This document shows, one piece after another, positions 673 to 58,800 of a DNA stretch of 64,000 bases. Source of the DNA: Acidobacteriota bacterium (GTDB taxonomy: Bacteria; Acidobacteriota; Aminicenantia; UBA2199); assembly GCA_022711715.1 (NCBI GenBank), contig JAKLEC010000001.1, positions 33,500 through 97,499 on the forward strand, given 5' to 3'. The position numbers and the translations under genes were made by a program. The notes under the pieces were generated by a model that was given only the letters and a program-made list of their open reading frames with translations, ran no database searches and was not told the DNA's origin. How positions within the stretch are numbered: the stretch's first letter is position 1; each line of letters opens with the position of its first letter.

Positions 673-706
673 GGTGTTTTCTCCTTGGGTACGGCTTTTT
701 CGGAAA

Positions 707-1630: not shown

Positions 1631-1639
1631 GGGTGTCTC

Positions 1640-2775: not shown

Positions 2776-2778
2776 GGC

Positions 2779-3890: not shown

Positions 3891-3916
3891 GCGTCACCTC
3901 CTGTTCGCGAACGGCG

Positions 3917-15060: not shown

Positions 15061-15104
15061 GGGGATGCTATCATGACACCGGGATTCCGGTCGCGAATCA
15101 CGAC

Positions 15105-15821
<717 letters not shown>

Positions 15822-15824
15822 GCC

Positions 15825-17228
15825 ATGACCATCAAAATGCAGCTCAAGGGCACGCAGCAGCTGACCATCACCCCGGTGATGCACTACTTCATCCAGCTCC
15901 TGGCCGACAACCACCTCGAGCTGGCCGAGACCCTGCAGAACGAGGCCGAGTCCAATCCCATGCTGGAACTCGAGACGGCCGAGCCCGAGCCGCGCGAGGA
16001 GGAGGCCAACGACTACACCAAGCGCATCGACCGCGCCGACGCCTCCTTCATGACCCCCTACGAGGACCAGGGCTTCTTCCGCCGCGATCCCGACAGCATG
16101 GACAAGAACCGCGCCCTGGAGGTGCTGACCCCCTCCAGCGTCAGCCTGGCCGACCACCTGCTGGAGCAGGCCCGGGCCGGCTTCGACAGCGGGGAGGAGA
16201 TCGAGATCGCCCGCCAGGTCATCTACAACCTGGACGCCGACGGCTACCTGAAGACCGAGATCGAGTCCATCGCCTCGCTGATCGGCACCACTCCGGAGGA
16301 GATCGAGCGCGTGCGCCGGCTGATCACCCGCTTCGACCCGCCCGGCTGCGGCAGCAAGACGCTGCCCGAGTGCCTGCTGGCCCAGGTCAGCGAGGGCCCC
16401 GAGGAGGGGATGCTGCGTAGGCTGATCCAGGACCATCTCGAGGACCTGTCCCGGGCCAACCACGAGGCCATCGCCAAGCGCCTGGGCGTCAGCGTCGAGG
16501 AGGTGCTGCGCCTGGCCCTGCGGCTGAAGCGCCTGAACCCGCGGCCGGCCGAGGCCTTCGACCGCGGCGAGGTGGAGTACGCCGCCGTCGACCTGATGCT
16601 GATCAAGGAGAACGGCGAGTACCGCGTCGTCTACCTCGACGAGGGGCTGCCGCGCCTGACCCTGTCCCACTACTACCACGAGATGCTGGAAAAGGCGCCC
16701 GACAAGCCGACCGCCGCCTACCTGCGCAACCGCTGGCGCGACGCCCAGTTCTTCATCGAGAGCATCGAGCTGCGCAAGAAGACCATCCTGCGCATCGCCG
16801 AGTTCCTGGTCAAGGCGCAGAAGGACTTCCTGGACTTCGGCGAGAAGTGGAAGAAGCCCCTGACCATGAAAGACGCGGCCCGCGAGGTGGGACTGAACGA
16901 GTCGACGGTGTCGCGCGCCGTCAGCAACAAGTTCATGACCTGGGAGAAGGGGGTCATCCCGCTCAAGGCCTTCTTCAGCTACGGCCTGAAGGGCGACTTC
17001 GGCTTTTCCCACGCCGTGGGCACCATCAAGGACAAGATCCGCGAGCTGATCGCCGCCGAGGACCCGGCCAAGCCGCTGGCCGACGACGAGGTCGCCGCGC
17101 GCCTGGCGGCGCTGGGCATCCGCATCGCCCGGCGCACGGTGCGCAACTACCGCGAGGAGATGAAGATCCCGAGCTCCTTCGTCCGCAAAAAGGAAAATAA
17201 AATCAAAGGAGTCCAAAATGAGCATTAA
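15825..17228 (+). CDS. rpoN: RNA polymerase sigma-54 factor RpoN
   Basis: N-terminal Gln/Leu region I, core-binding region, HTH, and C-terminal RpoN box ARRTVRNYRE. Confidence 0.95.
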   Translation: MTIKMQLKGTQQLTITPVMHYFIQLLADNHLELAETLQNEAESNPMLELETAEPEPREEEANDYTKRIDRADASFMTPYEDQGFFRRDPDSMDKNRALEVLTPSSVSLADHLLEQARAGFDSGEEIEIARQVIYNLDADGYLKTEIESIASLIGTTPEEIERVRRLITRFDPPGCGSKTLPECLLAQVSEGPEEGMLRRLIQDHLEDLSRANHEAIAKRLGVSVEEVLRLALRLKRLNPRPAEAFDRGEVEYAAVDLMLIKENGEYRVVYLDEGLPRLTLSHYYHEMLEKAPDKPTAAYLRNRWRDAQFFIESIELRKKTILRIAEFLVKAQKDFLDFGEKWKKPLTMKDAAREVGLNESTVSRAVSNKFMTWEKGVIPLKAFFSYGLKGDFGFSHAVGTIKDKIRELIAAEDPAKPLADDEVAARLAALGIRIARRTVRNYREEMKIPSSFVRKKENKIKGVQNEH

Positions 17229-17787
17229 CTTCGTGCACAGGAATGTCAAGATGCCGGGCGCCCTGAAGGCCTTCGTGGAGCAGCACCTGGCCGACATCGA
17301 AAAGATCGCCGGCGAGATCATCGACGCCGAGGTGATCATCAACGAAGAAAAACTCTCATTCAAGGTGGAACTCTCCCTGAAGACGCGCCTGGACTCGTTC
17401 CACGCGGAGAACCGCGACAAGATCCTGAAGCAGGCGCTGCGCGGCGCCCTGGCCACCCTGCGCGCCCAGGCCAAGCGCAGCAAGGAGAAGATCAAGGAAA
17501 GCAAGAAGCGCGCCGGGGCCAAGGGCATCTCCATGGCCACGGTGGGCATCGCCGCCGCCCCGCGCCGCGAGCGCGCGCCGCGCGCCGACGCCGGCGAGCC
17601 ACGCGAGGAGGCCATCGTGATCTCGGACAACTACTCGCGCAAGCCGCTGACCGTCGAGGAGGCCGTGTTCTACCTGGGCGAGAGCGGCGAGACCGGCTAC
17701 ATGTTCGTCAACTCCGAGACCAACCGCCTGGCCGCGGTGTTCCGCAACGCCCAGGGCGGCATCTCGCTGATCGAGCCCAACCTCTAG
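17218..17787 (+). CDS. hpf: Ribosome hibernation promoting factor (long HPF / sigma-54 modulation protein)
   Basis: N-terminal RaiA/HPF fold plus C-terminal extension. Canonical position after rpoN. Confidence 0.85.
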   Translation: MSINFVHRNVKMPGALKAFVEQHLADIEKIAGEIIDAEVIINEEKLSFKVELSLKTRLDSFHAENRDKILKQALRGALATLRAQAKRSKEKIKESKKRAGAKGISMATVGIAAAPRRERAPRADAGEPREEAIVISDNYSRKPLTVEEAVFYLGESGETGYMFVNSETNRLAAVFRNAQGGISLIEPNL

Positions 17788-17803
17788 CGCCGGGAGGCCG
17801 CCC

Positions 17804-18778
17804 ATGTCCAAGGAGGTCAAGGGGATCCAGCTCTCCCAAGTACGCGCCCTGGCGCCGCTGAAGATCGTGCGCGTCTTCAACGAGAGGGGCCTGGCCAACC
17901 TGGTCAGCCACCCGCGGCCGCAGCGGCCGGGGCTGGGCCTGACCGGCTACCTCAAGCACATCCATGCCGGCCGCATCCAAATCTTCGGCAAGACCGAGGC
18001 CGGCTACCTGGCCAGCCTGAAGGGCGAAGAGCGCGGCCGCTGCCTGCGCAACTACTTCGCCCTCAAGCTGCCGGGGGTGATCGTCGCCGAGAGCATCGAG
18101 CCCGAGGCCGACTGGATCGCCGCCGCCGCCCGCCACAATACGCCGCTGCTGGTGTCGGAGCTGCACACGGCGCCCCTCATCTCGCGCCTCAACGCCTACC
18201 TCTACCAGTACTTCTCCAAGACCATCAAGCTGAACGGCGTGCTGATGGACATCATGGGCCAGGGGGTGCTGATCACCGGCGCCTCGGGCATCGGCAAGAG
18301 CGAGACCGCCCTGGAGCTGGTCAACAAGGGCTACCAGCTGATCGCCGACGACGTCGCCGAGTTCTACATCGACTCCAACGACGAGCTGGTCGGCCGCGCC
18401 AACGAGGTCATCAAGAACCTGATGGAGGTGCGCGGCCTGGGCATCATCAACGTCAACGACATCTTCGGCGCCTCGGCCGTGCTCGACGAGAAGAGGCTCA
18501 ACCTGGTCATCAACCTGGAGAAGTGGGACCCCAAGAAGAAATACGATCGCCTGGGCGAGGACAACCTCTACTTCAAGATCCTCGGCCTGGAGGTGCCGCT
18601 GATCAACCTGCCGGTGGGGCCGGGCCGCAACCTGTCGACCATCATCGAGGTGGCGCTGCGCAATTTCCTGGCCAAGAAGGCCGGCCGCCTGACCTACCTG
18701 GAATCGCGCGGCCCCGCCGCGCCGCCGGCGCCGCCGGGCGCGCCCGAAGAGCCGCACACGGGGGGCGGCGAGCCATGA
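17804..18778 (+). CDS. hprK: HPr kinase/phosphorylase
   Basis: GASGIGKSETALEL P-loop, C-terminal kinase domain. Confidence 0.9.
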   Translation: MSKEVKGIQLSQVRALAPLKIVRVFNERGLANLVSHPRPQRPGLGLTGYLKHIHAGRIQIFGKTEAGYLASLKGEERGRCLRNYFALKLPGVIVAESIEPEADWIAAAARHNTPLLVSELHTAPLISRLNAYLYQYFSKTIKLNGVLMDIMGQGVLITGASGIGKSETALELVNKGYQLIADDVAEFYIDSNDELVGRANEVIKNLMEVRGLGIINVNDIFGASAVLDEKRLNLVINLEKWDPKKKYDRLGEDNLYFKILGLEVPLINLPVGPGRNLSTIIEVALRNFLAKKAGRLTYLESRGPAAPPAPPGAPEEPHTGGGEP

Positions 18779-19176
18779 TCAAGAGCGTCATCATCACCCA
18801 CGGCAGCCTGGGCCGCGAGCTGGTGCAGGTGGCCGAGAAGATCCTGGAGCAGAAGCTGGACGTCGAGATCATCGCCTTTGACTGGCAGGGCGACGGCAGC
18901 GGCATGATCCGCCAGCTGGAGGCGTTCATCGCCCGCCAGGGCGGCCACAAGGTCGTCATCTTCACCGACATGTTCGGCGGCTCGCCCTCGAACGTGTCCA
19001 CGCGCTTCATCGGGCCGAATGTCGAGGTGATCTCGGGCATCAACCTGCCGGGGCTGCTGAAGTTCTTCTGCTGCGGCGAGCCCGACGGCGCCTTCCGCCA
19101 GGTGGTCAAGAAGGTGGAGCAGGAAGCCAAGAACGGGATCAACATCATCAGCGAATACCTAGGAGAAAAAAAATGA
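18775..19176 (+). CDS. PTS EIIA component, mannose/fructose/sorbose family
   Basis: MIKSVIITHGSLGREL with phosphorylatable His in THG. ATGA overlap with hprK stop. Confidence 0.8.
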   Translation: MIKSVIITHGSLGRELVQVAEKILEQKLDVEIIAFDWQGDGSGMIRQLEAFIARQGGHKVVIFTDMFGGSPSNVSTRFIGPNVEVISGINLPGLLKFFCCGEPDGAFRQVVKKVEQEAKNGINIISEYLGEKK

Positions 19177-19442
19177 TCGAGAAGAAGCAGCAGATATTCA
19201 ACAAGCTGGGGCTGCACGCCCGGGCCGCCGCCAAGCTGTCCCACCTGGCCAACATGTTCAGCGCCGACATCTATCTCATCTTCAACGAGGACAAGGTCAA
19301 CGCCAAGAGCCTGCTGGGCATCCTCACCCTGGCCGCCTCGGTGGGCAACGAGATCACCCTGCAGGCCGCCGGCGCCGACGAGAAGGAGGCCATCCAGGCC
19401 ATCGGCGACCTGTTCGACCGCAAGTTCGACGAAGAGATCTGA
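19173..19442 (+). CDS. ptsH: Phosphocarrier protein HPr
   Basis: GLHARAA His15 motif, 89 aa. Ser46 region KSLLGIL. Confidence 0.9.
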   Translation: MIEKKQQIFNKLGLHARAAAKLSHLANMFSADIYLIFNEDKVNAKSLLGILTLAASVGNEITLQAAGADEKEAIQAIGDLFDRKFDEEI

Positions 19443-21205
19443 TGCGGCGCATCTCCGGCAAGGCGGTCTCCCCCGGCATCGCCATGGGGCGCGCCGTGCT
19501 GCACAACGTCACCCGCCAGGAGATCCTGGCCGAGCCCATCCCCCCGCGGGCGGTGGAGCGCGAGACCTGGCGCCTGGAGAACGCCGTCAAGAAGTCGCGC
19601 GCCCAGCTCAAGAAGATCCACCTCGGGCTGCAGAAGGTCATGGGCAAGGACGCCGCCTTCATCATCGAGGCCCAGCAGATGCTGCTCACCGACAGCCAGC
19701 TGCTCAACGAGATCAAGGGGGCGATCTCCGGCAAGCTGGTGAAGGCCGAGTGGGCCATCCGCCTGGTCGAGCGCCGCTACCAGGAGCTTTTCCGCTCCAT
19801 CCCCGACCTCTCCTTCAAGTCCAAGAGCAACGACGTCTCCGACGTGCTCAACCGCCTGATCGCCAACCTGCGCAAGGCCCCAGCGACGAAGCCGGCCGCC
19901 GGCGCCGCGCCCGGCGCCGCCCCCGGGCAGTACGTGCTGGTGGCCGACGACATCAGCCCGTCCGAGGCGGCCACGCTGATGAGCAGCCACCGCCTGCTGG
20001 GCCTGGTGCTGAACAAGGGCGGCGAGACCTCGCACACGGCCATCCTGGCCCGCACGCTCGGCATCCCCGCCATCCTGGACACGGGGAACGCCACCGAGCT
20101 CATCGCCGACGGCGACACCGTGGCCCTGGACTCGGTCGCCGGCGAGGTCATCGTCCAGCCCACTCCCGACGCCGCCCTGGAGATCGGGCGCAAGATCGAA
20201 CAGTTCGGCCAGTACCGCGAGCAGCTGAAGGCCCTCAGCCAGCTGCCGGAGCTGACCCGCGACCGCCGCCCCTTCCACCTCTACGCCAACATCGAGCTGC
20301 CCTTCGAGAGCGAAGTGGTGCAGTCGTTCGGCGCCAAGGGCATCGGCCTGTTCCGCACCGAGTTCCTCTACCTCGACTCCAAGATGAGCATCTCCGAGGA
20401 GGAGCAGTGCCTCATCTACAAGAAGATCGCCCAGAACGTCTACCCGCACCCGCTGGTCATCCGCACCTATGACCTCGGCCGCGACAAATCGGACCCGGCG
20501 CGGCCGCGGCGCGAGGACAACCCCTCGCTGGGCCTGATGGCCGTGCGCCTGTTCCTCAAGGAGCGCGAGCCCTTCAAGGTGCAGATCAAGGCCGTGCTGC
20601 GCGCCAATGCCAGCGGCAACATCCGCATCCTCTTTCCCATGGTCACCGAGATCGAGGAGGTGCGCGCCATCCGCGAGATCATGGCCGAGGCCCGGCGCGA
20701 ATTGCAGCGCACCGGCTCGCTGCCCAAGAAGGACGTCAAGGTGGGCATCATGCTGGAGATCCCCGCCGCCGTGCGCCTGATCCGCCACCTGGGCGACGAC
20801 GTCGACTTCTACTCGGTGGGCAGCAACGACCTGATCCAGTACCTGCTGGCCGTCGACCGCAACAACGCCGACGTCGCCCACCTCTACAGCCCCTTCCACC
20901 CGGCCTTCATCCACGTCCTGAAGGAGATCCGCCGGGAGGTGGACCGCGCCGGCAAGGAGGTGACCGTCTGCGGCGAGATGGCCGGCCAGCGCCTGCCGGC
21001 GCTGATGCTGCTGGGGCTGGGCTTCACCGGCTTCTCGATGAACGCGCTGGCGATCGCCGAGATCAAGCGCGTCTTCACCCGCGTCGACCTCGCCCGCCTG
21101 CGGCGCATCGTCTCCCGGCTGGACCGCTTCGGCTCGCGCTCCGAGATCGAGGAGCACCTCAGGACGGAGATCGACAGGGCGTATCCAGGGCTGTTGCAGG
21201 GCTGA
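19442..21205 (+). CDS. ptsI: Phosphoenolpyruvate-protein phosphotransferase (Enzyme I)
   Basis: GGETSHTAILAR phospho-His motif. PEP-utilising TIM barrel with CGEMAG. Confidence 0.95.
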   Translation: MRRISGKAVSPGIAMGRAVLHNVTRQEILAEPIPPRAVERETWRLENAVKKSRAQLKKIHLGLQKVMGKDAAFIIEAQQMLLTDSQLLNEIKGAISGKLVKAEWAIRLVERRYQELFRSIPDLSFKSKSNDVSDVLNRLIANLRKAPATKPAAGAAPGAAPGQYVLVADDISPSEAATLMSSHRLLGLVLNKGGETSHTAILARTLGIPAILDTGNATELIADGDTVALDSVAGEVIVQPTPDAALEIGRKIEQFGQYREQLKALSQLPELTRDRRPFHLYANIELPFESEVVQSFGAKGIGLFRTEFLYLDSKMSISEEEQCLIYKKIAQNVYPHPLVIRTYDLGRDKSDPARPRREDNPSLGLMAVRLFLKEREPFKVQIKAVLRANASGNIRILFPMVTEIEEVRAIREIMAEARRELQRTGSLPKKDVKVGIMLEIPAAVRLIRHLGDDVDFYSVGSNDLIQYLLAVDRNNADVAHLYSPFHPAFIHVLKEIRREVDRAGKEVTVCGEMAGQRLPALMLLGLGFTGFSMNALAIAEIKRVFTRVDLARLRRIVSRLDRFGSRSEIEEHLRTEIDRAYPGLLQG

Positions 21206-26422: not shown

Positions 26423-27133
26423 TCACTTCTTCTTGATCGTACTGAGCACCTTCTCCTTGTCGATCTTCTTGGTGCAGAAGAACCAGTCGTGGCAGGTGAC
26501 GCCGGCTTCCTTGCCGTCCATCCTATCCTTGGCCACGCCGCAGGAGCCGGCGGTGGGCACGATGACGTCGTCGCCCGGGCGCCAGTCGGCCGGGGTGGCC
26601 ACGCCGAAGGCGTCGGCGGTCTGCAGCGCCTGCAGCACGCGCAGCAGCTCGTCAAAGTTGCGGCCCATGCTCAGCGGGTAGTAGATGATGGTGCGGATGA
26701 TCCCCTTGGGATCGATGAAGAAGACGGCGCGCACGGCCTTGGTCGAGCTCTCGCCCGGCTGCATCATGCCGTACGCCTTGGCCACGTTCATGGTGATGTC
26801 CTCGATCAGCGGGAACTTCACCTCGACGTTCTTCATCCCCTTGTACTCGATCTTGTCCTTGATGGTGCGCAGCCAGGCGATGTGGCTGTACAGGCCGTCG
26901 ACCGAAAGGCCGACCAGCTGGCAGTTCAGCTCGGTGAACTTGGCCTCCATGGAGGCGAAGGTCATGAACTCCGAGGTGCACACCGGGGTGAAGTCGGCCG
27001 GGTGGCTGAACAGGATGACCCATTTCCCCGCGTACTGCTCGGGAAAGTTGATCTCGCCCTGAGTGGTGACGGCCTTGAACGACGGGGCCTTGTCGCCGAT
27101 GCGGGGCATGCTGACGGTTGCGTTCTGTTCCAT
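26423..27133 (-). CDS. 1-Cys peroxiredoxin (Prx6/AhpC-TSA family), copy B
   Basis: Start MEQNATVSMPRIGD (ATG 27133). FTPVCTSE motif. Paralog of 6619-7338. 5 bp downstream of the Fur-family gene. Confidence 0.85.
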   Translation of the reverse strand: MEQNATVSMPRIGDKAPSFKAVTTQGEINFPEQYAGKWVILFSHPADFTPVCTSEFMTFASMEAKFTELNCQLVGLSVDGLYSHIAWLRTIKDKIEYKGMKNVEVKFPLIEDITMNVAKAYGMMQPGESSTKAVRAVFFIDPKGIIRTIIYYPLSMGRNFDELLRVLQALQTADAFGVATPADWRPGDDVIVPTAGSCGVAKDRMDGKEAGVTCHDWFFCTKKIDKEKVLSTIKKK

Positions 27134-27138
27134 TTTGC

Positions 27139-27558
27139 TTATCTCCTTTTGCTTGAATTGGCTTGGCTCTCTGCGGCCAGGCAGGCGGAGCAGGTGCCGT
27201 AGAAGCGCACGGTATGGCCGCTGACGCGGTGCATCGAGAGGCGGCGCGCCGCTTCGGTGATCCTTTTGTCTGCGGGCATGTCCAGGTCGCTCACCGCGCC
27301 GCAGCGCTCGCACACGAAGTGGTAATGGCCGGCGGTGACGGCGTCGTAGCGCACGGTGCCGCTGCCGAACTCCCCCGCCTGCAGCCGCCCCTCCTCGAGG
27401 AGGATGGCGATGTTGCGGTAGACGTTGCCCAGGCTCAGCCGCGGCATTTCCGGCTTCAGGCCGTTGTACACTTCCTGCGCCGTCGGATGGCTTCTGGACG
27501 CACGTATCGCCTCATAAATCCGCTCACGCTGCGTGCTTTTTCTTCTGATCTGCTCCAT
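27139..27558 (-). CDS. Fur-family metalloregulator, PerR-like
   Basis: Start MEQIRRK (27558). HTH then HYHFVCERCG...CSAC metal-site Cys pairs. Position upstream of a peroxiredoxin suggests peroxide regulon. Confidence 0.75.
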   Translation of the reverse strand: MEQIRRKSTQRERIYEAIRASRSHPTAQEVYNGLKPEMPRLSLGNVYRNIAILLEEGRLQAGEFGSGTVRYDAVTAGHYHFVCERCGAVSDLDMPADKRITEAARRLSMHRVSGHTVRFYGTCSACLAAESQANSSKRR

Positions 27559-48867: not shown

Positions 48868-49009
48868 GTGCTGCAGACGCGCCGGCCTCGGGTCCGCAAG
48901 GGGTTCACGGGTCCTGCATCGGGTGATCGGTTGGGGAGCGGGAACGGGCCTTTCCGTCAGGGCCATTATACACCAGGCGGCGGGGAATGTAAATCATCGC
49001 CTCCGGCAT

Positions 49010-50237
49010 GGGGACGGAGGATTAAAATTTGACTTTTTCCCTGCGAGGTAAAAAGTCAATATTTAAAGTTCCGTCCCCCAGCAGGCAGGAAGGCAGCCTG
49101 CTTGCCTGCGCTGTATGGCCACAAAACTGATGCGGAGGACCAGCGATACAATGCAGCACACAGGGATGGCTAGAGGATTTTCCCATACCATACAGATTGA
49201 TGGACGAAATTCTAATTTTTGACCTTTATATTTCCTCTCTTCTTTGCATTGCGGTACAGATGCCCCAGAGACTGGTGCTTCAAGTCAAAGAAGAAGGGGA
49301 TTTCGCCTATATCCGAATATTTCAGCCCGGCCAGGTCATGCAGCCAGACCAATAGCTCGCCCCGCAGTCTTTTGCCTGCGTGGGATGAGCGGTCGATCTG
49401 CTTCAGGCTGACCTGGTGCTTCCTTTCGAACTCATGGACCACCTTTTCAGCGGGCTCAAAGAATCGGTCCTCCGCGCGCTTCCTCTGTGCATCGGCGGGC
49501 GTTTTCCTGCGGTCGAACTTTTCCGCCGCCTTATCCGGGAAATCATCGCTCCCGATCACAGTCCCGAACCGAGTCCGAATGATCGGCAGCTCCGCATCGG
49601 CCGGATCGCGCAAGACGGCAGCCAGACCCTGGCGCGACTTGAAGAGGCCTTCAATGAGGTCAGTCGCCAGCCACTCGCTCCTTCTCCTGGAAAAATACGC
49701 GCCAGCGCTCGACCAGGGATAATCCGTCGATACTGCAGCCAGGCCCGCCCTGACCGGATTCAGGAGGACGTAACGGATTGCCAGTGTCAGGTATCCTTCA
49801 TCCTGGATCAGGGAGGAGTGAAAGCGGTTTTGGAACACGTATCCCTGGCTCGCCGTCTTCCTGCGATAATACATGCCGTACTGGCCGTTCAACTGCCGGA
49901 GAAAATGGGAAAGCCGGCCTGAGCGATTCTCGACCACCAGGTGATAGTGGTTGTCTATCAGGCAGAAGGCGAAAATGCGGATGCCGTTCAGTTTGGAATT
50001 CCTGGCCAGAAGTTCAAGAAAATGGCGTTTATCATTGTCACCCGCAAGGATCTTTTCCCCGTTGATCCCGCGGCTGGTGACATGGTGAAACGCTCCAGGG
50101 TAAGTCAGCCTGGGAAGCCGCATGGTTCGATCTTAGTTGAGGAGCGAAACGAATTCAATGGGGACGGAGGATTAATTTTTGTGTTTTTCGTGATTCGATA
50201 AAAAAGTCAAAAATTAAAGTTCCGTCCCCAAAAGGAG
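49010..50237. mobile_element. REP-associated tyrosine transposase (RAYT) unit flanked by two AT-rich ~75-nt palindromic hairpin elements in direct orientation (REPtron-like)
   Basis: GGGGACGGAGGATTAAAATTTGACTTTTT...AAAAAGTCAATATTTAAAGTTCCGTCCCC at 49010-49082. GGGGACGGAGGATTAATTTTT...AAAAAGTCAAAAATTAAAGTTCCGTCCCC at 50157-50237. Confidence 0.7.
49212..50123 (-). CDS. IS200-like Y1 (HUH) transposase, REP-associated (RAYT), with C-terminal DnaA-C-like HTH extension
   Basis: NHYHLVV HuH motif. Catalytic Tyr region YVLLNPVRAGL. C-terminal LHDLAGLKYSDIGEI...LGHLYRN resembles DnaA domain IV. Confidence 0.75.
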   Translation of the reverse strand: MRLPRLTYPGAFHHVTSRGINGEKILAGDNDKRHFLELLARNSKLNGIRIFAFCLIDNHYHLVVENRSGRLSHFLRQLNGQYGMYYRRKTASQGYVFQNRFHSSLIQDEGYLTLAIRYVLLNPVRAGLAAVSTDYPWSSAGAYFSRRRSEWLATDLIEGLFKSRQGLAAVLRDPADAELPIIRTRFGTVIGSDDFPDKAAEKFDRRKTPADAQRKRAEDRFFEPAEKVVHEFERKHQVSLKQIDRSSHAGKRLRGELLVWLHDLAGLKYSDIGEIPFFFDLKHQSLGHLYRNAKKRGNIKVKN

Positions 50238-50321
50238 CGGGGATTGTAAATCGCGGCGATTCCCCATAGAATAGGGCCTTGACCGATGCGGCCGGAACCA
50301 CCGGGCCCGGAGGAGCACACC

Positions 50322-53300
50322 ATGAAAACAAGGCAGCGCAACACCCTGGCGGCGATCGTCCTGACGCCACTGCTGGCAGCCGTCCTGGCCTTCCCCAGCC
50401 GCGCGGCGGCGGCGCGCGAGCGGATCGCCGGGCTGGACAAGGCCATCGACGCCCGCATCGCGGGCTGGGAGCTCTCCCTCGACGGTTCGCGCTGGGAGCC
50501 CTACCAGCCCGGCCGGCCGGTCACGGCGGCGGGCTTCCGCCTGCGCGCATCCGTCCAGGCGCCGGCCGCCTTCGCCGGCGCGAGGGTACAGGGCACGCCG
50601 CTGCGCCTGGCGGCGCGGATGAGCGGCCGCGGCCTGGCGCAGGCCGCCTTTTTCCTCGACGGCCGCGAGCTGGAGCAGGCCGTCCTGCACGGCGAGAACG
50701 GCACCGCCGTCGAAGAGCGCCGCGACGTCTCGCTGCTGGAACGCAGCGACGGCGCCGCCCACGTCCTGGAGATCGCTGTGGAGAACCGCGGCTTCCTGCC
50801 GGCGCGCGGCGAATATTGGCCGGAGCGCCGCCGCGGCGCGCCGCCGGACGAGGGGATCTCCTTCACCCTGGCCGCGGCCGAGCTGTCATTCCCGGCGGCG
50901 GCGGGGAACCTGGCCGCGCTGCAGGACTGGCTGCGCTCGTTCCAGTTCGCCGACATCCTGGTCAACCCCGAGCTGAAGCGCTACACCTTCACCGGCAAGC
51001 CCTACGACATCCCCGACAAGCGGCGCGTCGCGGCGGAGAAGCTGCGCCGGCTCAATGACGCGCTGGACAGGGCCGCCGCCGCCCTGGACCTCGCTGCGCT
51101 CCAGGCCGGCGACGGGCCGAAGCTGCAGGCGTCGCTGCGTCGCTCCTTCGCCATCGCCGCCCCCGTCAAAGACTATCTCCGGGAGTTCCGTATCAGCCTG
51201 GTGGGCAACGCCCACATCGACATCGCCTGGCTGTGGCGCATAGCCGAGACCATGGCCCTGACCAAGAACACCTACGGGACGGTGATCCAGAACATGGGCG
51301 AGTACCCCGAGCTCACCTACGCCCAGAGCCAGGCCGTCACCTACGACTGGATCGAGAGGAAGCATCCCGACCTGTTCCGGAAGATAAAGGAAAAAGTGAA
51401 GAGCGGCCGCTGGGAGATCGTGGGCGGCATGTGGGTCGAGCCCGACTGCAACCTGATCGCCGGCGAAAGCTGGGCGCGCCAGATCCTCTACGGCAAGACG
51501 TACTTCAAGGAGAAGTTCGGCGTCGACGTGCGCATCGGCTGGAATCCCGACTCCTTCGGCTACAACTGGAACATGCCGCAGCTGTACAAGCTGGGCGGCA
51601 TCGACACCTTCATCACCCAGAAGCTGTGGTGGAACGACACCACCGTGTTCCCGCACTTCTTCTTCAACTGGCAGGGGGTGGACGGCACGACCATCCTCAC
51701 CTATCTGCCGCCGCTGAGCTACGCCAGCCAATTGAAGCTGGCCGAGGTGGCCAACGGCGTCTCCAAGTACGAGGCCACCACCGGTTTGAAGGAGAGCCTG
51801 ATCCTCTACGGCCTGGGTGACCACGGCGGCGGCCCCAACCGCGAGATCCTCGACCGCGTGCGCGGCTACGGCAAGATGACGCTGGCGCCGCGCTTCGTCC
51901 ACACCACGCCGAGCCCGTTCCTGCAGGGGAAGCGCAGGGAGAAGCTGGACCTGCCCCTGTGGCAGGACGAGCTCTACCTGGAGTACCACCAGGGGACCTT
52001 CACCACCCAGGGAGCGATCAAGAAGAACAACCGCCGTACCGAGGCCCTGTTGGCCACGACGGAGAAGCTCGCCGCCGCCGCCTGGCTGCTGGGTGCCCCG
52101 TACCCTAAGGAAGAACTGGAACGGTGCTGGAAGAGCGCCCTCACCCTGCAGTTCCACGACATCCTCCCCGGCTCATCCATCACCCCGGTCTACCGCGATG
52201 CGCTGGAGACCTTCCAGCAGGTGCAGCAGGAGCTGAAACGGCTTGGAAACGCGGCTTGCAGCCGCATCATCGACAGCATCGCCACCGCCGAACCGGCCGA
52301 AAAGCCGTTCCGGATGTGGCTGTTCGTCTTCAACCCCCTTTCCTGGGAGCGCGATGACGTCGTGACCACCGCGTTCCCTATCCTCGAGGGCCATGGACTG
52401 CGTCTCCTTGATGAGCAGGACCATGATGTCGAGTTCGAGATCGGCAAGGCGGTCAATGGCAAGGACGAGATCACGTTCATCGCCCGCAAGGTCCCGCCCT
52501 TGGGCTACCGGGTTTATTCCTGGCTCACGTATCCCGAAGGTTCGCCGCGGGCGCCCGCGCCGCAAGCCGCCGGCCCGGGCAGCGGCATCCTGGAGAACGA
52601 AACCCTGCGGGTGGAGATCGATCCCGCCAGCGGCAACCTCAAGAGCATTTTCGACAAGAGGCGGGGGTGCGAGTTCGTGGCGCCCGGCGAGCAGGCCAAC
52701 AAGCTCTGGGTCTACGAGGACCGGCCGGAGAACTGGGATGCCTGGAACATCGGCTATACCGGCCGCGTCTGGGAGCTGAATAAGGCCGACAAGGTGGAGC
52801 GGGTCTCCAGCGGCCCGGTCAAAACGGTCTTCCGCGTCGACAAGAGCTTCCTGGGCTTCTCCAAGGAGCGCGAGTACCCGAGCGAGGACTTTCCCTCCTC
52901 CTTCTTCACGCAGTACATCACCCTGTACAAGGGGCTGGACCGCCTGGACATCCGCACCGAGGCCGACTGGTGGGAGGACCACCTCTCGCTCAAGGCCTGC
53001 TTCCCGCTCGACGTCAAGGCCGACAAGGCGTACTACGAGATCCCCTTCGCCGCCATCGGCCGCACCACCCGCTTCGAGACGCTGTGGGAGAAAGCGCGCT
53101 ATGAGGTGCCGGCACTGCGCTGGGCCGACCTGGCGGACGAGAAGGGCGGCGTCGCCCTGCTCAACGATTCCAAGTACGGCTACGACATCCACGGCAGCGT
53201 CATGAAGCTGTCGCTGCTCCGCTCGCCGACCTGGCCCGACCCGCTGGCCGACCGCGGCCGCCACGAGTTCACCTATTCCCTTTATCCCCATGCCGGCTCG

Positions 53301-53666
53301 TGGAGTGAGGCGCAGGTGGTGCGCCGCGGCCAGGAGCTCAACCAGCCGCTGCTGACAAGAGTCTTCACGGGAAGCGAAGGCAAGCTGCCGCCCATCCAGG
53401 GCTTTTTCGCCATCGACGGCGAGGGCGTGATCATCGATGCCATCAAGCTGGCCGAGGACCGCTCGGGGCTGGTACTCCGCCTCTACGAGGCCAACGGCAG
53501 GGCGGAAAAGGCGACATTGCGCTGCTTCCGCGCCCCGACCGCGGCGGTCGAGACCGACCTGCTGGAGAAGGAGACCGCCCCGCTCGCCGTGAAGGACGGC
53601 GGCATCGCCCTGTCCTTCCGCCCGTTCGAGATCAAGACGGTCAGGATCCGCTTCGCGGAACGCTGA
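50322..53666 (+). CDS. Glycoside hydrolase family 38 alpha-mannosidase with N-terminal signal peptide and ~260-aa extra domain
   Basis: Start MKTRQRN (50322). GH38 core from NAHIDIAWLW. GGMWVEPDCN, GWNPDSFGYNWNMPQ, C-terminal beta-sandwich domains. Confidence 0.85.
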   Translation: MKTRQRNTLAAIVLTPLLAAVLAFPSRAAAARERIAGLDKAIDARIAGWELSLDGSRWEPYQPGRPVTAAGFRLRASVQAPAAFAGARVQGTPLRLAARMSGRGLAQAAFFLDGRELEQAVLHGENGTAVEERRDVSLLERSDGAAHVLEIAVENRGFLPARGEYWPERRRGAPPDEGISFTLAAAELSFPAAAGNLAALQDWLRSFQFADILVNPELKRYTFTGKPYDIPDKRRVAAEKLRRLNDALDRAAAALDLAALQAGDGPKLQASLRRSFAIAAPVKDYLREFRISLVGNAHIDIAWLWRIAETMALTKNTYGTVIQNMGEYPELTYAQSQAVTYDWIERKHPDLFRKIKEKVKSGRWEIVGGMWVEPDCNLIAGESWARQILYGKTYFKEKFGVDVRIGWNPDSFGYNWNMPQLYKLGGIDTFITQKLWWNDTTVFPHFFFNWQGVDGTTILTYLPPLSYASQLKLAEVANGVSKYEATTGLKESLILYGLGDHGGGPNREILDRVRGYGKMTLAPRFVHTTPSPFLQGKRREKLDLPLWQDELYLEYHQGTFTTQGAIKKNNRRTEALLATTEKLAAAAWLLGAPYPKEELERCWKSALTLQFHDILPGSSITPVYRDALETFQQVQQELKRLGNAACSRIIDSIATAEPAEKPFRMWLFVFNPLSWERDDVVTTAFPILEGHGLRLLDEQDHDVEFEIGKAVNGKDEITFIARKVPPLGYRVYSWLTYPEGSPRAPAPQAAGPGSGILENETLRVEIDPASGNLKSIFDKRRGCEFVAPGEQANKLWVYEDRPENWDAWNIGYTGRVWELNKADKVERVSSGPVKTVFRVDKSFLGFSKEREYPSEDFPSSFFTQYITLYKGLDRLDIRTEADWWEDHLSLKACFPLDVKADKAYYEIPFAAIGRTTRFETLWEKARYEVPALRWADLADEKGGVALLNDSKYGYDIHGSVMKLSLLRSPTWPDPLADRGRHEFTYSLYPHAGSWSEAQVVRRGQELNQPLLTRVFTGSEGKLPPIQGFFAIDGEGVIIDAIKLAEDRSGLVLRLYEANGRAEKATLRCFRAPTAAVETDLLEKETAPLAVKDGGIALSFRPFEIKTVRIRFAER

Positions 53667-53676
53667 GCGGGGCCCC

Positions 53677-54699
53677 ATGAACAAGCACCTGCTCAAGGTC
53701 AAGCAGTACCTGCTCTCGGGCGTCTCCTACGCCATCCCCTTCGTCGCCTGCGGCGGCATCCTCATCGCCGTGGCCATCGCCCTCGTGCCCATGGGCGCCG
53801 GCGGCCCCGACTTCTCCCACTCGCCCTTCCTCAAGATGCTGCTGGACATCGGCAGCAGCGCCTTCTCGCTGCTGGTGCCGGTGCTGGCCGGCTACATCGC
53901 CTTCGGCATGGCCGACCGGCCGGGCCTGGTGCCGGGCTTCGTCGGCGGCGCCATCGCCAACCAGATCGGCGCCGGCTTCCTGGGCGGGCTCGTCGCCGGC
54001 CTGCTCGCCGGCGCCGTGGTGATGCTGATCAAGAAGGTGAAGGTGCCGATCTACTTCCGGCCGGTCATGCCCATCCTGGTCATCCCCGTCGTCGCCTCGC
54101 TGGTCGTGGGCTTCGTCATGTACCGCTTCCTGGGCGTGCCGATCCGCGACCTGATGACCGCGATGTCGGCCTGGCTGAAGGTGATGGGCACCGGCAACCG
54201 CGTCGTCCTGGCGGCGGTGCTGGGAGCCATGATCGCCTTCGACATGGGCGGCCCGGTGAACAAGGTCGCCTTCTTCTTCAGCGCCGCCATGATCAAGGAG
54301 GGGAATTTCGCGCCCATGGGCGCCTGCGCCGCCGCCATCTGCGTGCCGCCGCTGGGCATGGGCCTGGCCACGCTGCTGGGCCGGCGGCGGTGGACGCAGC
54401 AGGAGCGCGAGGCCGGCTACGCCAGCCTGGCCATGGGCATGATCGGCATCACCGAGGGGGCCATCCCCTTCGCCGCCGCCGAGCCGCTGCGCACCATCCC
54501 CGTCATCATGCTGGGCTCGATGACGGCGTCCGTGATCGCCATGCTGGGCAACGTGGGCGGCCATGCGCCGCACGGCGGGCCCATCGTGCTGCCGGTGGTG
54601 GACAACCGCCTGGTGTACGTCGCGGCCATCCTCGCCGGCACCCTGCTGGTGGCGCTGCTGGCCAACGCCATCCGCCGCTACGCCGGCGTGAAGTCCTGA
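53677..54699 (+). CDS. PTS fructose-family EIIC permease component
   Basis: 340 aa polytopic. GGPVNKVAFFF and GITEGAIPFAAA motifs of EIIC-Fru. Confidence 0.85.
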   Translation: MNKHLLKVKQYLLSGVSYAIPFVACGGILIAVAIALVPMGAGGPDFSHSPFLKMLLDIGSSAFSLLVPVLAGYIAFGMADRPGLVPGFVGGAIANQIGAGFLGGLVAGLLAGAVVMLIKKVKVPIYFRPVMPILVIPVVASLVVGFVMYRFLGVPIRDLMTAMSAWLKVMGTGNRVVLAAVLGAMIAFDMGGPVNKVAFFFSAAMIKEGNFAPMGACAAAICVPPLGMGLATLLGRRRWTQQEREAGYASLAMGMIGITEGAIPFAAAEPLRTIPVIMLGSMTASVIAMLGNVGGHAPHGGPIVLPVVDNRLVYVAAILAGTLLVALLANAIRRYAGVKS

Positions 54700-54710
54700 A
54701 GGAGAAGCAG

Positions 54711-55010
54711 ATGAAGATCGTCGCCGTCACCGCCTGCCCGACCGGCATCGCCCACACCTACATGGCGGCCGAGCAGCTGGAGAAGACCGCCCGCAGGCTC
54801 GGGCACGGCATCCGCGTGGAAACCCAGGGCTCGATGGGCATCGAGAACAAGCTGGCCGCCGCCGAGATCCGCGCCGCCGATGCCGTCATTTTCGCCGCCG
54901 ACATCGCCGTGCAGGACGGCGAGCGCTTCGCGGGCAAGAAAATCGTGGAGGTCGGCGTGCAGGAGGCCATCAAGCGCCCCGAGGCGGTGTTCGCCCGCCT
55001 GGGCGGGTAA
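54711..55010 (+). CDS. PTS fructose-family EIIB component
   Basis: MKIVAVTACPTGIAHTYMAAE with active-site Cys. Confidence 0.85.
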   Translation: MKIVAVTACPTGIAHTYMAAEQLEKTARRLGHGIRVETQGSMGIENKLAAAEIRAADAVIFAADIAVQDGERFAGKKIVEVGVQEAIKRPEAVFARLGG

Positions 55011-55019
55011 GGGAGCGCC

Positions 55020-57539
55020 TTGGCCGCGGTGCGCTTCGCCTTCCCCCTGGCCGGCGGCCTGCACGCCCGGCCGGCCAGCCTGCTCCGCGACGCCTGCCGC
55101 CCGTTTGCCGCCGCCGTCGTCTTCCGCAACCTGCGCAGCGGCAAACGCGCCGACGCCGCCAGCGTCCTGGAGCTGGTGGCCAGCGACACCGTCCGCAACG
55201 ATCCCTGCCTGCTGGAGGCGAGCGGCCCGCAGGAGCGCGAGGCCATGGCGGCGCTGCGCGCCTTCGTGGAGCGCGACCTGCCCGGCGCCGACGACGAGAC
55301 GCCGCCGGCCGGCAGCGCCGCCGGCGCCTCCTGGCTGCCGCCCGTCTTCGTCGCCGGCGGCGGCTCCCTGCTCCGCGGCCGTCCCCTGGCGCCGGGGGTG
55401 GGCCGGGGCCGCGTCCGCCGCCTGGCCGGGCGGGCTTCCTTCCCGAAGCGCTTCGCATCCGGCAGGCGCGACGCGGCGCAGGAACTGGAGTCGTTCCGCC
55501 GGGCCGCTGCCGAGGTCGAGGCCGCGCTGGCGGGATCGGCTGCGCGCGCCGCCGGGCCCGTCGCCGCCATCTTCAAGGCCCAGCAGGCCATCGCCGCCGA
55601 TCCGGCGTTCGCCGGCCGGGTGGCCGGCCTGATCGCCAAAGGCAGGCTGTCGGCGGGCGCGGCGATCGGGCAGGCCGCAGGCCATTACGCCGGCAAGCTG
55701 CGGCGCTCCTCCAGCGCCTACCTGCGGGAACGGGCCGACGACGTGTACGATATCGCCGCCCAGCTGGCGGAGAAGCTGTACGGCGCCGTGTCCCGACCGG
55801 CCGCGCCGGCTTCAGGTCCCTTCGTCGTTGCCGCCTCGTCCCTCTCCGCCTCCGAGCTGCCCGCCCTCCAGCGTCGCGGCCTGCGCGGGCTGATCCTCGG
55901 CGACGTCGGCGCGACCGCGCACGTCGCCATCCTGGCGCGCTCGCTGTCCATCCCCGCCGTCTCCGTCGATCCCGGCGCCCTGGCGCGCATCGTGGCCGGC
56001 GCCGAGGCGCTGGTTGACGGCCGGCGCGGCCTGGCGGTGATCGCCCCCGGCGCCGCCCTGAAGCGCTACTACCGCCTGGAGCAGGCGTCCGCCGCGGAGA
56101 TCCGGCGCCGGCGGAGCGCCTGGCGCCGGCTGCCGGGCCGGACACGCGACAAAAAACGCATCGAGATCGCGGCCAACGTCGGCCGGCCCGAGGAGCTGGC
56201 AACGGCCTGGGCCGCCGGCGCCCAGGGCATCGGCCTCTTCCGCAGCGAGTTCCTCTTCCTCGGCCGCCGGGAGCCGCCGGGCGAGGAGGAGCAGTTCGCG
56301 GCCTACACCCGGGCGACGCGGTCGGCCGGCGGCCGGCCGGTGATCGTCCGCACCCTCGATGTCGGCGGCGACAAGCCCCTCCCCTACCTGAAGCTGGCGC
56401 CTGAAGCCAATCCCTTCCTCGGCCGCCGCGCCGTGCGCTTCTACGCCGGGCATGCCGGCCTGGTGCGCTGCCAGCTGCGGGCCATGCTGCGCGCCGCCGG
56501 CCGCGGCCGGCTGAAGATCATGGTGCCGATGGTGACCGCGCCGGGAGAAGTGCGACTGGTGCGCGGGCTCCTGAAGGAGGCCGCCGCCGAGCTGCGAAGT
56601 CGCCGCGTTCCCCATGCCCGCTCCGTCGAGCTAGGGATCATGGTGGAGACGCCGGCGGCGGCGCTGGCCGTCGATTCCCTGGCGCGCGAGGCCGACTTCT
56701 TCAGCGTCGGCAGCAACGACCTGCTGCAGTACGTGATGGCCGTCGACCGCGGCAACCCGGCGCTGGCCGGGCTCTACGACCCGCTCCATCCCGCCTTCCT
56801 GCGCCTGCTGGCCGGCGCCGCCCGCCAGGCCCGCCGGGCGCGGCGCTGGCTGGGGCTCTGCGGGGAAATGGCGGGAAGCGCGGAGCTCCTGCCGCTCCTG
56901 GTCGGCATGGGCTTCGACGAGCTCAGCATGGCGCCGGGACTGATCCCCGGGACGAAGGAGCGGCTGGCCCGCCTGGACGCGGCCGCCTGCCGCCGGCTCC
57001 TGGGCCGCGCTCTGCGCTGCGGCGAGGCCGCCGCGGTACGGGCCTTGCTGCGGCAGTTCGCCGCCGCGGACGACGGCTCCGCCCGGCGCCAGGTCACCGC
57101 GGCCGGCCTGGTCCGCCTGGGCTCGCCCAGCCGCAGCGCCGCCGAGGCGATCCGCGAGCTGTGCGCCATGCTGGAGCTCGACGGCCGCGTGGGCGACGCC
57201 CTGGCGCTGGAAGAGGCGGCGTGGAGGCGCGAGGAGTCCTATGCCACCGACCTGGGGCTGGGTTTCGCCCTGCCCCATGCCAAGTCGCCGGCCGTGCGCG
57301 AGGCGGCGGTCGCCTTCCTGCGGCCGTCCCGCCCCTTCCGCTGGGCCGCGGGATCGCGAACACCGGTGCGTGGCGTGCTGCTGATCGCCGTTCCGGAGGG
57401 CGGAGGCGAGGAGCACCTGCGCCTTATCGCCGGGTTGTCGCGCCGGCTGGTGCACGAGGAGTTCCGCCGCGCCCTGCTCTCCGCCCGCACCGTTGCCGCC
57501 GCCCTGGCCGCCCTGCGCTCGGGGCTGGGGAGCGGATGA
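55020..57539 (+). CDS. PTS multiphosphoryl transfer protein (HPr domain - Enzyme I - EIIA-Fru/Ntr type), FryA-like
   Basis: N-terminal GLHARPAS HPr His. Central GDVGATAHVAILAR EI His and CGEMAG. C-terminal EIIA GLGFALPHAKS. Confidence 0.8.
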   Translation: MAAVRFAFPLAGGLHARPASLLRDACRPFAAAVVFRNLRSGKRADAASVLELVASDTVRNDPCLLEASGPQEREAMAALRAFVERDLPGADDETPPAGSAAGASWLPPVFVAGGGSLLRGRPLAPGVGRGRVRRLAGRASFPKRFASGRRDAAQELESFRRAAAEVEAALAGSAARAAGPVAAIFKAQQAIAADPAFAGRVAGLIAKGRLSAGAAIGQAAGHYAGKLRRSSSAYLRERADDVYDIAAQLAEKLYGAVSRPAAPASGPFVVAASSLSASELPALQRRGLRGLILGDVGATAHVAILARSLSIPAVSVDPGALARIVAGAEALVDGRRGLAVIAPGAALKRYYRLEQASAAEIRRRRSAWRRLPGRTRDKKRIEIAANVGRPEELATAWAAGAQGIGLFRSEFLFLGRREPPGEEEQFAAYTRATRSAGGRPVIVRTLDVGGDKPLPYLKLAPEANPFLGRRAVRFYAGHAGLVRCQLRAMLRAAGRGRLKIMVPMVTAPGEVRLVRGLLKEAAAELRSRRVPHARSVELGIMVETPAAALAVDSLAREADFFSVGSNDLLQYVMAVDRGNPALAGLYDPLHPAFLRLLAGAARQARRARRWLGLCGEMAGSAELLPLLVGMGFDELSMAPGLIPGTKERLARLDAAACRRLLGRALRCGEAAAVRALLRQFAAADDGSARRQVTAAGLVRLGSPSRSAAEAIRELCAMLELDGRVGDALALEEAAWRREESYATDLGLGFALPHAKSPAVREAAVAFLRPSRPFRWAAGSRTPVRGVLLIAVPEGGGEEHLRLIAGLSRRLVHEEFRRALLSARTVAAALAALRSGLGSG

Positions 57540-57586
57540 GTTGCATGTCCGCCGCCGGGCGCCTATAATCGGGGCGGAACGAAGCC

Positions 57587-58198
57587 ATGGGGAGGAGCGA
57601 CATGGACCCGAAGAACGCCCTGCCGCCGCGGGCGCGCAAGCGCCTGATCGTCCTGGCCGCCGTCATCCTGCTGCTGCTGGCCGTCAACCTGGCCGTGCCG
57701 GCACGCAAGGTGCGGCCGCCGCTGACTGCCCGCACCCTCAAGGACCTGGCGGAGCTGGCCACCGTCGAGTACGAGGTGACCAAGATCGTCTCGCACAAGG
57801 ACATCGCCTGGTACGGCGACCGCAAGATCCTGTTCGAGACGGCCGCCGAGGTCAAGGCCGGCATCGACCTCAACGAGTTGGCCGACCAGGACGTGCGCGT
57901 CGAGGGCGACGCCGTCACCGTCACCCTGCCGCGGCCGCGCATCCTGCTCTTCAACATGAAGCCCGGAAGCATGCGCGAGATCTTCAACGAGTCGGGCATC
58001 CTGCGCAGCGACTTCTCCAACCAGGAGAAGGACGCCCTGCTCAGCCTCGGCGAAAAGGACATCCGCGCCAAGGTGGCCGCCATGGACGTCCTCGACCGCG
58101 CCGCGCGCAACGCGCGTATCCTGGTGGAGTCGTGGCTGCGGCGCTCGGGCTATTCCGCGGTGCGCGTGGAGTTCCGCGCCGCCGGAGGCGCCGCATGA
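57587..58198 (+). CDS. DUF4230 domain protein
   Basis: N-terminal TM anchor then DUF4230 fold (VEYEVTKIVSHKDI..KAGIDLNEL). Confidence 0.65.
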   Translation: MGRSDMDPKNALPPRARKRLIVLAAVILLLLAVNLAVPARKVRPPLTARTLKDLAELATVEYEVTKIVSHKDIAWYGDRKILFETAAEVKAGIDLNELADQDVRVEGDAVTVTLPRPRILLFNMKPGSMREIFNESGILRSDFSNQEKDALLSLGEKDIRAKVAAMDVLDRAARNARILVESWLRRSGYSAVRVEFRAAGGAA

Positions 58199-58800
58199 AG
58201 CGCCTGGCCGCCCTGCTCACCGCCGCCGCCCTGCTGGCCGCCGCCCTGCTGCTCTACAACCCGCTGGCCAAGATCGGCCTGCTGCCGCCGCTGAAGGCGC
58301 TGCTGCGCGGGGGCGCCGCCGAGATCGCGGAGACGCCGGTGATCGTCCAGCAGGTGAAGAACATCGCCCAGATGTTCACCCAGACCTTCTACGACGAGAT
58401 CGTCTACGACACCGGGGTCATGCGCACGCCGGTCTTCAGCCAGAACAAGCGGCTGATCTTCATCGCCAAGGGAGAGGTGATCGCCGGCTTCGACCTGTCG
58501 GAGCTGGGCGAGAGCGCCATCATGCGCCGCGGCCGCTCGATCGTGGTCAAGCTGCCGCCGGCGCGGGTCCTGGACGTGGTCATCAACCCCAGCGGCTTCG
58601 AGACCTTCATCGAGGAGGGCGAGATCAGCTTCGAGGAGAGCAAGCGCTTCCATGAGGACGCGCGGCGCATCTTCGATGAGAACGCCCGGCGCAAGGGCAT
58701 CCTGCGCAACAGCGCCGAGCAGGGCCGGCAGATGCTGGAGAAGTTCTTCCGCCTGCTGGGCTTCGAGACGGTGGACATCATCATCCCCGCCAGCCGCTAG
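58195..58800 (+). CDS. DUF4230 domain protein (paralog)
   Basis: Start MKRLAALLTAAALLAAALLL (58195, ATGA overlap). Same architecture as the preceding gene. Confidence 0.65.
   Translation: MKRLAALLTAAALLAAALLLYNPLAKIGLLPPLKALLRGGAAEIAETPVIVQQVKNIAQMFTQTFYDEIVYDTGVMRTPVFSQNKRLIFIAKGEVIAGFDLSELGESAIMRRGRSIVVKLPPARVLDVVINPSGFETFIEEGEISFEESKRFHEDARRIFDENARRKGILRNSAEQGRQMLEKFFRLLGFETVDIIIPASR

Follow-up and report, generated by a model that had tools for sequence, protein, structure and literature searches.

How an alpha-mannosidase and a sugar phosphotransferase system (PTS) encoded side by side divide their work, and which of them acts first, is the question raised by a four-gene operon of an Acidobacteriota bacterium of the Aminicenantia (lineage UBA2199; assembly GCA_022711715.1). 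The operon occupies positions 50322-57539 of the DNA analysed here, a stretch of 64,000 nucleotides (positions 33,500 to 97,499 of contig JAKLEC010000001.1; G+C content ~65%), which is referred to below as the window. NCBI ranks the source group as candidate phylum Aminicenantota; in GTDB, the Aminicenantes group is assigned to the Acidobacteriota. The operon codes for a GH38 alpha-mannosidase, the separate EIIC and EIIB components of a fructose-type PTS, and a multiphosphoryl transfer protein (MTP) that unites HPr, enzyme I (EI) and EIIA domains (Table 1). This gene content and order, given in a preliminary description made from the letters alone, were reproduced by our analysis of open reading frames and domains. 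The same description explained the operon by analogy to the mngA-mngB pair of Escherichia coli, and on this point our reading differs.

On balance, we think it probable that the operon scavenges alpha-mannosides, an exported exo-alpha-mannosidase freeing mannose and a dedicated PTS importing and phosphorylating it. In this diderm bacterium, the GH38 enzyme would leave the cytoplasm via the Sec pathway and act beyond it, with the periplasm as the most likely site, cutting mannose off alpha-mannosides, for instance oligomannose N-glycans or fragments of mannan. This mannose would be taken up by EIIC. Phosphate would pass from phosphoenolpyruvate along the three MTP domains EI, HPr and EIIA to EIIB and the sugar, giving mannose 6-phosphate. 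Phosphomannose isomerase would convert the latter to fructose 6-phosphate, which would feed into glycolysis; a mannose-6-phosphate isomerase was reported in an Aminicenantes genome (PMC4897734). The private EI and HPr may serve to keep this uptake relay apart from an HprK-controlled set of EI, HPr and EIIA-Man, which is encoded in the rpoN operon of the same window.

All four genes are co-directional and are separated by spacers of 10, 11 and 9 nt (GH38/EIIC, EIIC/EIIB and EIIB/MTP, respectively), with Shine-Dalgarno motifs (AGGAG or GGGAG) located 5' of the EIIB and MTP genes. The sole promoter-like site of the operon found in a consensus scan, TTGTAA-17-TAGAAT, lies between the right REP-like element and the GH38 start. 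No intrinsic terminators above shuffled background were detected within or after the operon. The assigned GH38 start at 50322 is supported, since GGAGGAG precedes it by 8 nt and the other candidate ATG, at 50286, is lost in related locus L001, where it reads ATT (the L001 orthologue is 87% identical).

The GH38 protein matched the Pfam domains Glyco_hydro_38N (PF01074, 1.1e-80), Alpha-mann_mid (PF09261, 2.6e-25), 38C (PF07748, 4.2e-54) and 38C2 (PF17677, 1.2e-15). The residues H298-x-D300, D410 (in NPDSFGY), D500 (in GDHGGGP) and H612-D613 were invariant among 43 homologues; their roles in metal binding and as the Asp nucleophile are assumed here from the motifs, by analogy to dGMII. The PDB was searched with a profile built from 43 sequences. 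The best scores were obtained for Ams1 (6lz1; E 2e-178) and Bl_Man38A (7ufr; 1e-155), the whole Ams1/Bl_Man38A-C set ranging from 2e-178 to 2e-137 and matching residues 270-1100 of the protein. The MngB-like enzymes SpGH38 (Streptococcus) and EfGH38 (Enterococcus) reached E values of only 1e-42. Ams1 and Bl_Man38A-C also took ranks 1-8 in a Foldseek search with the full-length AlphaFold model (pLDDT 83.7). Judged by these profile and model comparisons, the enzyme is a member of the Ams1/MAN2C1/Bl_Man38 class of exo-alpha-mannosidases and is not MngB-like. Its closest homologue was a metagenome protein (99% identity), followed by proteins from about a dozen genomes (71-87% identity), most of which are labelled Candidatus Aminicenantes.

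Export by the Sec system, with a cleavable signal peptide, is predicted for the enzyme; the signal peptide had been noted correctly in the preliminary description. Its N-terminus, MKTRQRNTLAAIVLTPLLAAVLAFPSRAAA followed by ARE, combines an n-region containing three basic residues with a hydrophobic core (peak value 2.6) and a c-region of small residues (A-A-A); neither a twin-arginine motif nor a lipobox cysteine is present. Hydrophobicity was scored on the Kyte-Doolittle scale in a 12-amino-acid window, and an N-terminal segment was counted at values of >=2.0. Such a segment was present in 106 of 120 GH38 homologues (47-99% identity) and in none of the 120 at an internal control window; the 14 proteins without it are mostly gene calls that are truncated or have a wrong start. 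It is the character of the signal segment that is conserved among these homologues, not its sequence. In the AlphaFold2 model, the leader forms a detached lone helix with a pLDDT of 47-58. The preliminary description had named a periplasmic mannosidase expressed independently of the PTS genes as evidence against its own proposal. The enzyme is indeed predicted to be exported; independent expression, on the other hand, is at odds with the operon layout.

The ~260-residue domain between the leader and the catalytic core is present as originally reported. It is extra only in comparison to MngB, however: in all Ams1-class relatives, the catalytic domain sets in at about residue 283-294, and in the window enzyme at residue 291. 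Modelled in isolation (AlphaFold2, pLDDT 94.7), the domain gave its top Foldseek matches to beta-sandwiches of the CBM51, CBM6, CBM61 and CBM36 types, which were weak (TM ~0.3). No match to this domain was found by sequence in Pfam or PDB. Comparison with the N-terminal domains of the Ams1 class revealed no sequence signal, and Foldseek with the isolated domain did not recover this class.

The PTS components were classified with NCBIfam models and by direct comparison with E. coli proteins. EIIC scored 301.5 bits with TIGR01427 (cut-off 157.6) and EIIB 120.8 bits with TIGR00829 (cut-off 76.9); EIIC had no Pfam match, only NCBIfam ones. By these models, both proteins are members of the fructose (Fru) family of the PTS. 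The best hits were the models for FrwC (NF007787, 366 bits against an equivalog cut-off of 426) and FrwB (NF007783, 132.9 against 135). Since both remain below the cut-offs, we call the proteins Frw-like and not orthologues in the NCBI sense. EIIC is 47% identical to E. coli FrwC (332 aa), 36% to the IIC part of MngA and 26% to FryC, while EIIB shares 53% identity with E. coli FrwB and, in the alignment, has its active-site Cys (in VTACPTG) at the position of the FrwB Cys. The MTP scored 419 bits with TIGR01417 (cut-off 342) and is colinear over its full length with PtsA(FrwA) and FryA (37% and 36% identity, respectively), with identical domain order. Its phosphorylation residues, i.e., the HPr His (GLHARPAS), the EI His (GATAHVAILARS), the EI Cys (LGLCGEM) and the EIIA His (ALPHAKS), are all present and are conserved in the full-length alignments to both proteins. 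The preliminary description was correct on the private EI and HPr. The label "Fry-like", also used there, fits the domain order of the MTP; for the permease it was rejected on direct BLAST comparison with FryC and FrwC.

Genomes of other bacteria, one per species, were scanned for the same association. The order GH38-EIIC-EIIB-MTP was found in 16 loci (L001-L012, L014, L028, L029 and L043) and is therefore not a chance juxtaposition; in L021 the PTS genes are inverted near the GH38 gene. The PTS triad is highly conserved: its EIIC retains 62-78% identity across Thermoanaerobaculia, Holophagales and other Acidobacteriota. In these groups it is linked to two further GH38 types. One comprises ~1325 aa with C-terminal Fn3_assoc/CHB_HEX_C_1/PA14 modules and shares 30% identity with the window enzyme; the other shares 22% identity and is followed by a GH125 gene. 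GH38 genes of these types are located downstream of, upstream of or divergently from the triad, and their products begin with signal peptides. An EIIC query from Thermoanaerobaculia retrieved 80 metagenome loci, 31 of which were too short to be informative; in 27 of the remaining 49, a GH38 gene adjoins the triad in one of several orientations. A literature search for a coupling of GH38 and PTS in Aminicenantes or Acidobacteria yielded no account of one, only generic remarks on a "putative mannose PTS". We regard this association, widespread in the Acidobacteriota, as a variant of the pairing of a glycosidase with a transporter rather than a new kind of system.

The strongest argument for the monosaccharide as the cargo of the transporter comes from relatives in which the PTS is replaced. 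GH38 orthologues of ~50% identity possess an equivalent signal peptide and N-terminal domain and have no PTS beside them. In five loci (L013, L015, L017, L018 and L085), an SSF sodium/solute symporter gene is located directly 3' of the GH38 gene. In five others (L022, L023, L024, L025 and L030), it lies 1.7-1.9 kb downstream; the gap in L030, the only one inspected, holds an inserted asnC-asnA pair. In L019 and L084, the GH38 gene is followed by genes for a sugar porter of the MFS (TIGR00879, 392 bits against a cut-off of 238) and a hexokinase. A porter and a hexokinase together are equal to the one-step action of a PTS on a free hexose. The transporter of the operon therefore most plausibly handles the monosaccharide product and not the intact mannoside. 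The 64-kb window was searched for hexokinase, SSF and sugar-porter genes and contained none.

Several points weigh against this interpretation. The signal peptide was called by feature analysis rather than by SignalP. From the sequence of EIIC alone, mannose as the substrate cannot be told apart from fructose or from other ketoses or hexoses. The 64-kb window contained no gene for phosphomannose isomerase. GH38 is missing from 22 of the 49 informative metagenome loci, of which 15 have one long flank only and 7 have at least 3 kb on both flanks. Finally, one locus (L092) encodes a protein of the exo-alpha-1,6-mannosidase family GH125 (15210-16556), which has no signal peptide and overlaps the stop codon of the exported GH38, with an SSF transporter gene next to it. 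This hints that some mannosides may enter the cytoplasm intact in this lineage and suggests that an alpha-1,6-mannoside is cleaved there.

The alternative that survives best, although we regard it as rather unlikely, is that the PTS imports a substrate other than mannose (fructose, another hexose, a ketose or a polyol) and that its linkage to GH38 reflects co-regulation in a wider programme of glycan foraging. All matching family models are indeed fructose-type, no mannose link is known for the Frw system of E. coli, no manA gene is adjacent, and almost half of the informative loci show the triad with no GH38 within reach. In these GH38-negative loci, however, the genes beside the triad are of mixed kinds, coding for a beta-lactamase-like protein, TonB, CarB, serine dehydratase, sulfatase, MFS and a TonB-dependent-type barrel. 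Only GH38 therefore recurs as a partner of the triad, and its recruitment extends to at least three architectures and to several different gene orders. A canonical fructose operon (fruBKA) would be expected to include fruK, yet no gene for a pfkB-family 1-phosphofructokinase was found at the window operon, L081 or L089-L093. The lack of a linked fruK-type gene at any locus inspected argues against such an operon, and the parallel hexose-uptake modules beside orthologous GH38s also speak against a substrate unconnected with the mannosidase.

Import by the PTS of a small manno-oligosaccharide or disaccharide that the exported enzyme leaves behind, followed by cleavage inside the cell by another enzyme, is improbable. 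The leaderless GH125 of L092 is what such a route would look like, although the SSF transporter of that locus could serve the GH125. Most linked loci, and the window operon itself, encode no cytoplasmic glycosidase, and GH38 enzymes of the Ams1/Bl_Man38 class are exo-acting and release mannose (PMC10154615).

Slightly less probable still is the MngAB-like logic of the preliminary description, by which the PTS would import and phosphorylate an alpha-mannoside, e.g. mannosylglycerate, and a cytoplasmic GH38 would hydrolyse the phosphorylated product. The pairing of a Fru-family PTS with GH38 in E. coli mngA-mngB and the resemblance of EIIC to the IIC part of MngA invite this comparison, but EIIC is nearer to FrwC. 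The window enzyme is only 22% identical to E. coli MngB and scores 137 bits with the MngB equivalog model NF007331, far below its cut-off of 1138. The catalytic domain of MngB begins at residue 6 and therefore leaves no room for a leader, whereas a signal peptide is predicted for the window enzyme and for both unrelated PTS-linked GH38 types. With the conserved leader, the Ams1-class assignment and the sugar porter and hexokinase that stand in for the PTS at orthologous loci, the evidence tells against a cytoplasmic GH38 acting on a phosphorylated mannoside. A role of the triad mainly as a sensor or regulator with little flux, its phosphorylation state reporting mannose availability, fits the presence of a regulatory PTS in this genome and the commonness of such roles in Gram-negative bacteria, but is the least probable alternative, given a full EIIC, an intact EIIB Cys, high conservation (62-96% identity across classes) and no fused or adjacent PRD or regulator domain.

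Table 1. Features of the GH38-PTS operon and of other parts of the window (positions are those of the 64,000-nucleotide stretch).
Feature	Position	Strand	Basis or remark
GH38 alpha-mannosidase, 1114 aa	50322-53666	+	Pfam domains
GH38 predicted signal peptide, aa 1-30, MKTRQRNTLAAIVLTPLLAAVLAFPSRAAA	50322..50411	+	feature analysis, conservation
GH38 N-terminal domain, aa 31-290, beta-sandwich then helical bundle	50412..51191	+	AlphaFold2 model
GH38 catalytic core and C-terminal beta domains, aa 291-1114	51192..53666	+	Pfam, PDB profile search, Foldseek
PTS EIIC, fructose family, FrwC-like, 340 aa	53677-54699	+	NCBIfam, comparison with E. coli FrwC
PTS EIIB, FrwB-like, 99 aa	54711-55010	+	Pfam PTS_IIB 9.6e-24, NCBIfam TIGR00829
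MTP, HPr-EI-EIIA(Fru), 839 aa, TTG start	55020-57539	+	Pfam, NCBIfam
MTP HPr domain, aa 1-90	55020-55289	+	Pfam/NCBIfam
MTP EI domain, aa 119-682	55374-57065	+	Pfam/NCBIfam
MTP EIIA-Fru domain, aa 696-833	57105-57518	+	Pfam/NCBIfam
Sigma-70-like promoter, TTGTAA-17-TAGAAT	50244..50272	+	consensus match only; kept in L001
RAYT gene, upstream of operon	49212-50123	minus	
REP-like palindromes, ~70 nt, flanking RAYT	49010-49078 and 50160-50229		predicted hairpins -21.5 and -21.8 kcal/mol; z -8.2 and -6.3
Near-identical 16-mers gcggggaWtgtaaatc, bounding the RAYT cassette	48979-48994 and 50238-50253		
rpoN operon, lptB-rpoN-hpf-hprK-EIIA(Man)-HPr-EI	14982-21205		hprK to EI at 17804-21205

The RAYT gene upstream of the module was correctly noted in the preliminary description, which took it as a hint that the module could be recently acquired. 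The RAYT cassette is inserted just 5' of the -35 box of the operon, and the REP-like element is present in two copies only in the 64-kb window. The spacer between typA and the GH38 gene, interrupted by the cassette in the window, is continuous in L001. The order typA-GH38-PTS-DUF4230 occurs in about 11 other species with no RAYT at that position; RAYT homologues are found elsewhere in loci L005 and L011. The G+C content at third codon positions (GC3) is 0.97 in typA, 0.92 in GH38, 0.99 in EIIC and 0.93 in MTP, but 0.69 in RAYT. Because synteny is conserved, the L001 spacer is intact and the GC3 of the module matches that of typA, the newcomer is the RAYT and not the module. The idea of a recent acquisition was rejected on these grounds.

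The second general PTS attributed to the rpoN operon consists of EI and HPr together with HprK and EIIA-Man, and it has no permease. Together with the MTP, this makes two EI and two HPr modules in the genome. With an HPr kinase and no permease, the rpoN-operon trunk is presumably regulatory. Elsewhere in the window, two paralogous 1-Cys peroxiredoxin genes (AhpC-TSA and 1-cysPrx_C) are located at 6619-7338 and 26423-27313, both on the minus strand. Two tandem DUF4230 genes lie 3' of the GH38-PTS operon (57587-58800), and an equivalent pair is present in relatives (L081, 17322-18523). A site resembling a promoter, TTGCAT-17-TATAAT (57541-57569), was recognized by eye and could belong to the DUF4230 pair.

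Some further neighbours of the triad were recorded at other loci. Genes for Nramp, MgtE_N/CBS and CorA proteins flank the triad and GH38 in members of the Thermoanaerobaculia and Holophagales (L089, 412-2990 and 10988-12176; L090, 5300-7878); they may supply metal to the metal-dependent GH38 or may be there by coincidence. A ROK-family gene, coding for either a sugar kinase or an Mlc/NagC-like regulator, adjoins the triad in L091 (12072-13190) and L103 (28-657). Upstream of a GH38-less triad, L143 encodes a TonB-dependent-type outer-membrane barrel (CarboxypepD_reg and OMP_b-brl_4; 387-4532). A similar barrel is assumed upstream of the GH38-less triad in L161 (388-4383) from its size and position, which are like those in L143.

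Sediments and soils harbour Aminicenantes and many other uncultured Acidobacteriota in abundance, and their feeding on glycans is deduced from genomes only. A conserved operon for a predicted exported mannosidase and a PTS would indicate that alpha-mannosides (fungal or algal mannans, N-glycans) are a resource which these bacteria target. For the orphan Frw-like branch of the PTS, it provides a concrete substrate hypothesis that can be tested. No substrate has become known for the E. coli members of this branch since their discovery in the genome, and our literature search for one, made for Frw and Fry, found none. A broader proposal, to which we give slightly less than even credence, is that Frw-type "cryptic" PTS with their own EI and HPr serve across the Acidobacteriota in dedicated uptake of mannose or a mannose-derived sugar and have repeatedly recruited different exported GH38s. 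If true, the Frw branch of the fructose family would thereby receive its first functional assignment, and the system would exemplify a PTS relay that runs apart from the HprK-controlled regulatory PTS of the cell.

Among characterized mannosidases, the Ams1/MAN2C1/Bl_Man38 enzymes are the best sequence and fold matches of the window GH38 and share the position of its catalytic domain, at about residue 285. Bl_Man38A-C are exo-mannosidases acting on high-mannose N-glycans (PMC10154615). Enzymes of this class are described as intracellular, residing in the cytosol, the vacuole or the bacterial cytoplasm (see also PMC10154615), whereas the window enzyme has a predicted signal peptide and an N-terminal domain without detectable sequence similarity to those of Ams1 and Bl_Man38. 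In Bacteroides, a broad-acting GH38 attacks mannan fragments once these have been imported into the cell (PMC10154615). A functional parallel, likened here by description, is BT3774 of the mannan polysaccharide utilization locus of B. thetaiotaomicron, an exported GH38 that takes mannose off fragments imported across the outer membrane (PMC10154615). That locus, however, is of the SusC/D type, has many partner enzymes and takes up its products without a PTS.

On the side of transport, the Frw system of E. coli (PtsA/FrwA, FrwC, FrwB and FrwD) is the closest match for all three PTS proteins and has the same separate EIIC and EIIB and the same HPr-EI-EIIA order. It differs in that ptsA is divergent from frwCB, a second EIIB (FrwD) is present, and the neighbouring genes are pflDC, fsaB and gldA with no glycosidase. 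The Fry system shares the domain order of its FryA with the MTP, but FryC is 74 aa longer than EIIC and only distantly similar to it, and the E. coli operon contains the aminopeptidase genes ypdE and ypdF. A precedent for mannose as the substrate is ManP of Bacillus subtilis, a Fru-family EII that carries mannose to mannose 6-phosphate. ManP is a fused EIIBCA protein that depends on general EI and HPr and is encoded in an operon with manA. With MngA/MngB, finally, the window operon shares the adjacency of a Fru-family PTS gene and a GH38 gene. MngA, however, is a fused EIIABC using general EI and HPr, while the window system has a split permease with its own EI and HPr; and MngB is a cytoplasmic enzyme without a leader and without an N-terminal domain. 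Analogy is thus no ground for annotating a GH38 gene beside a fructose-type PTS as a mannosylglycerate system, because the subclass and predicted location of the enzyme reverse the order of the pathway: in the window system, hydrolysis is predicted to precede transport.

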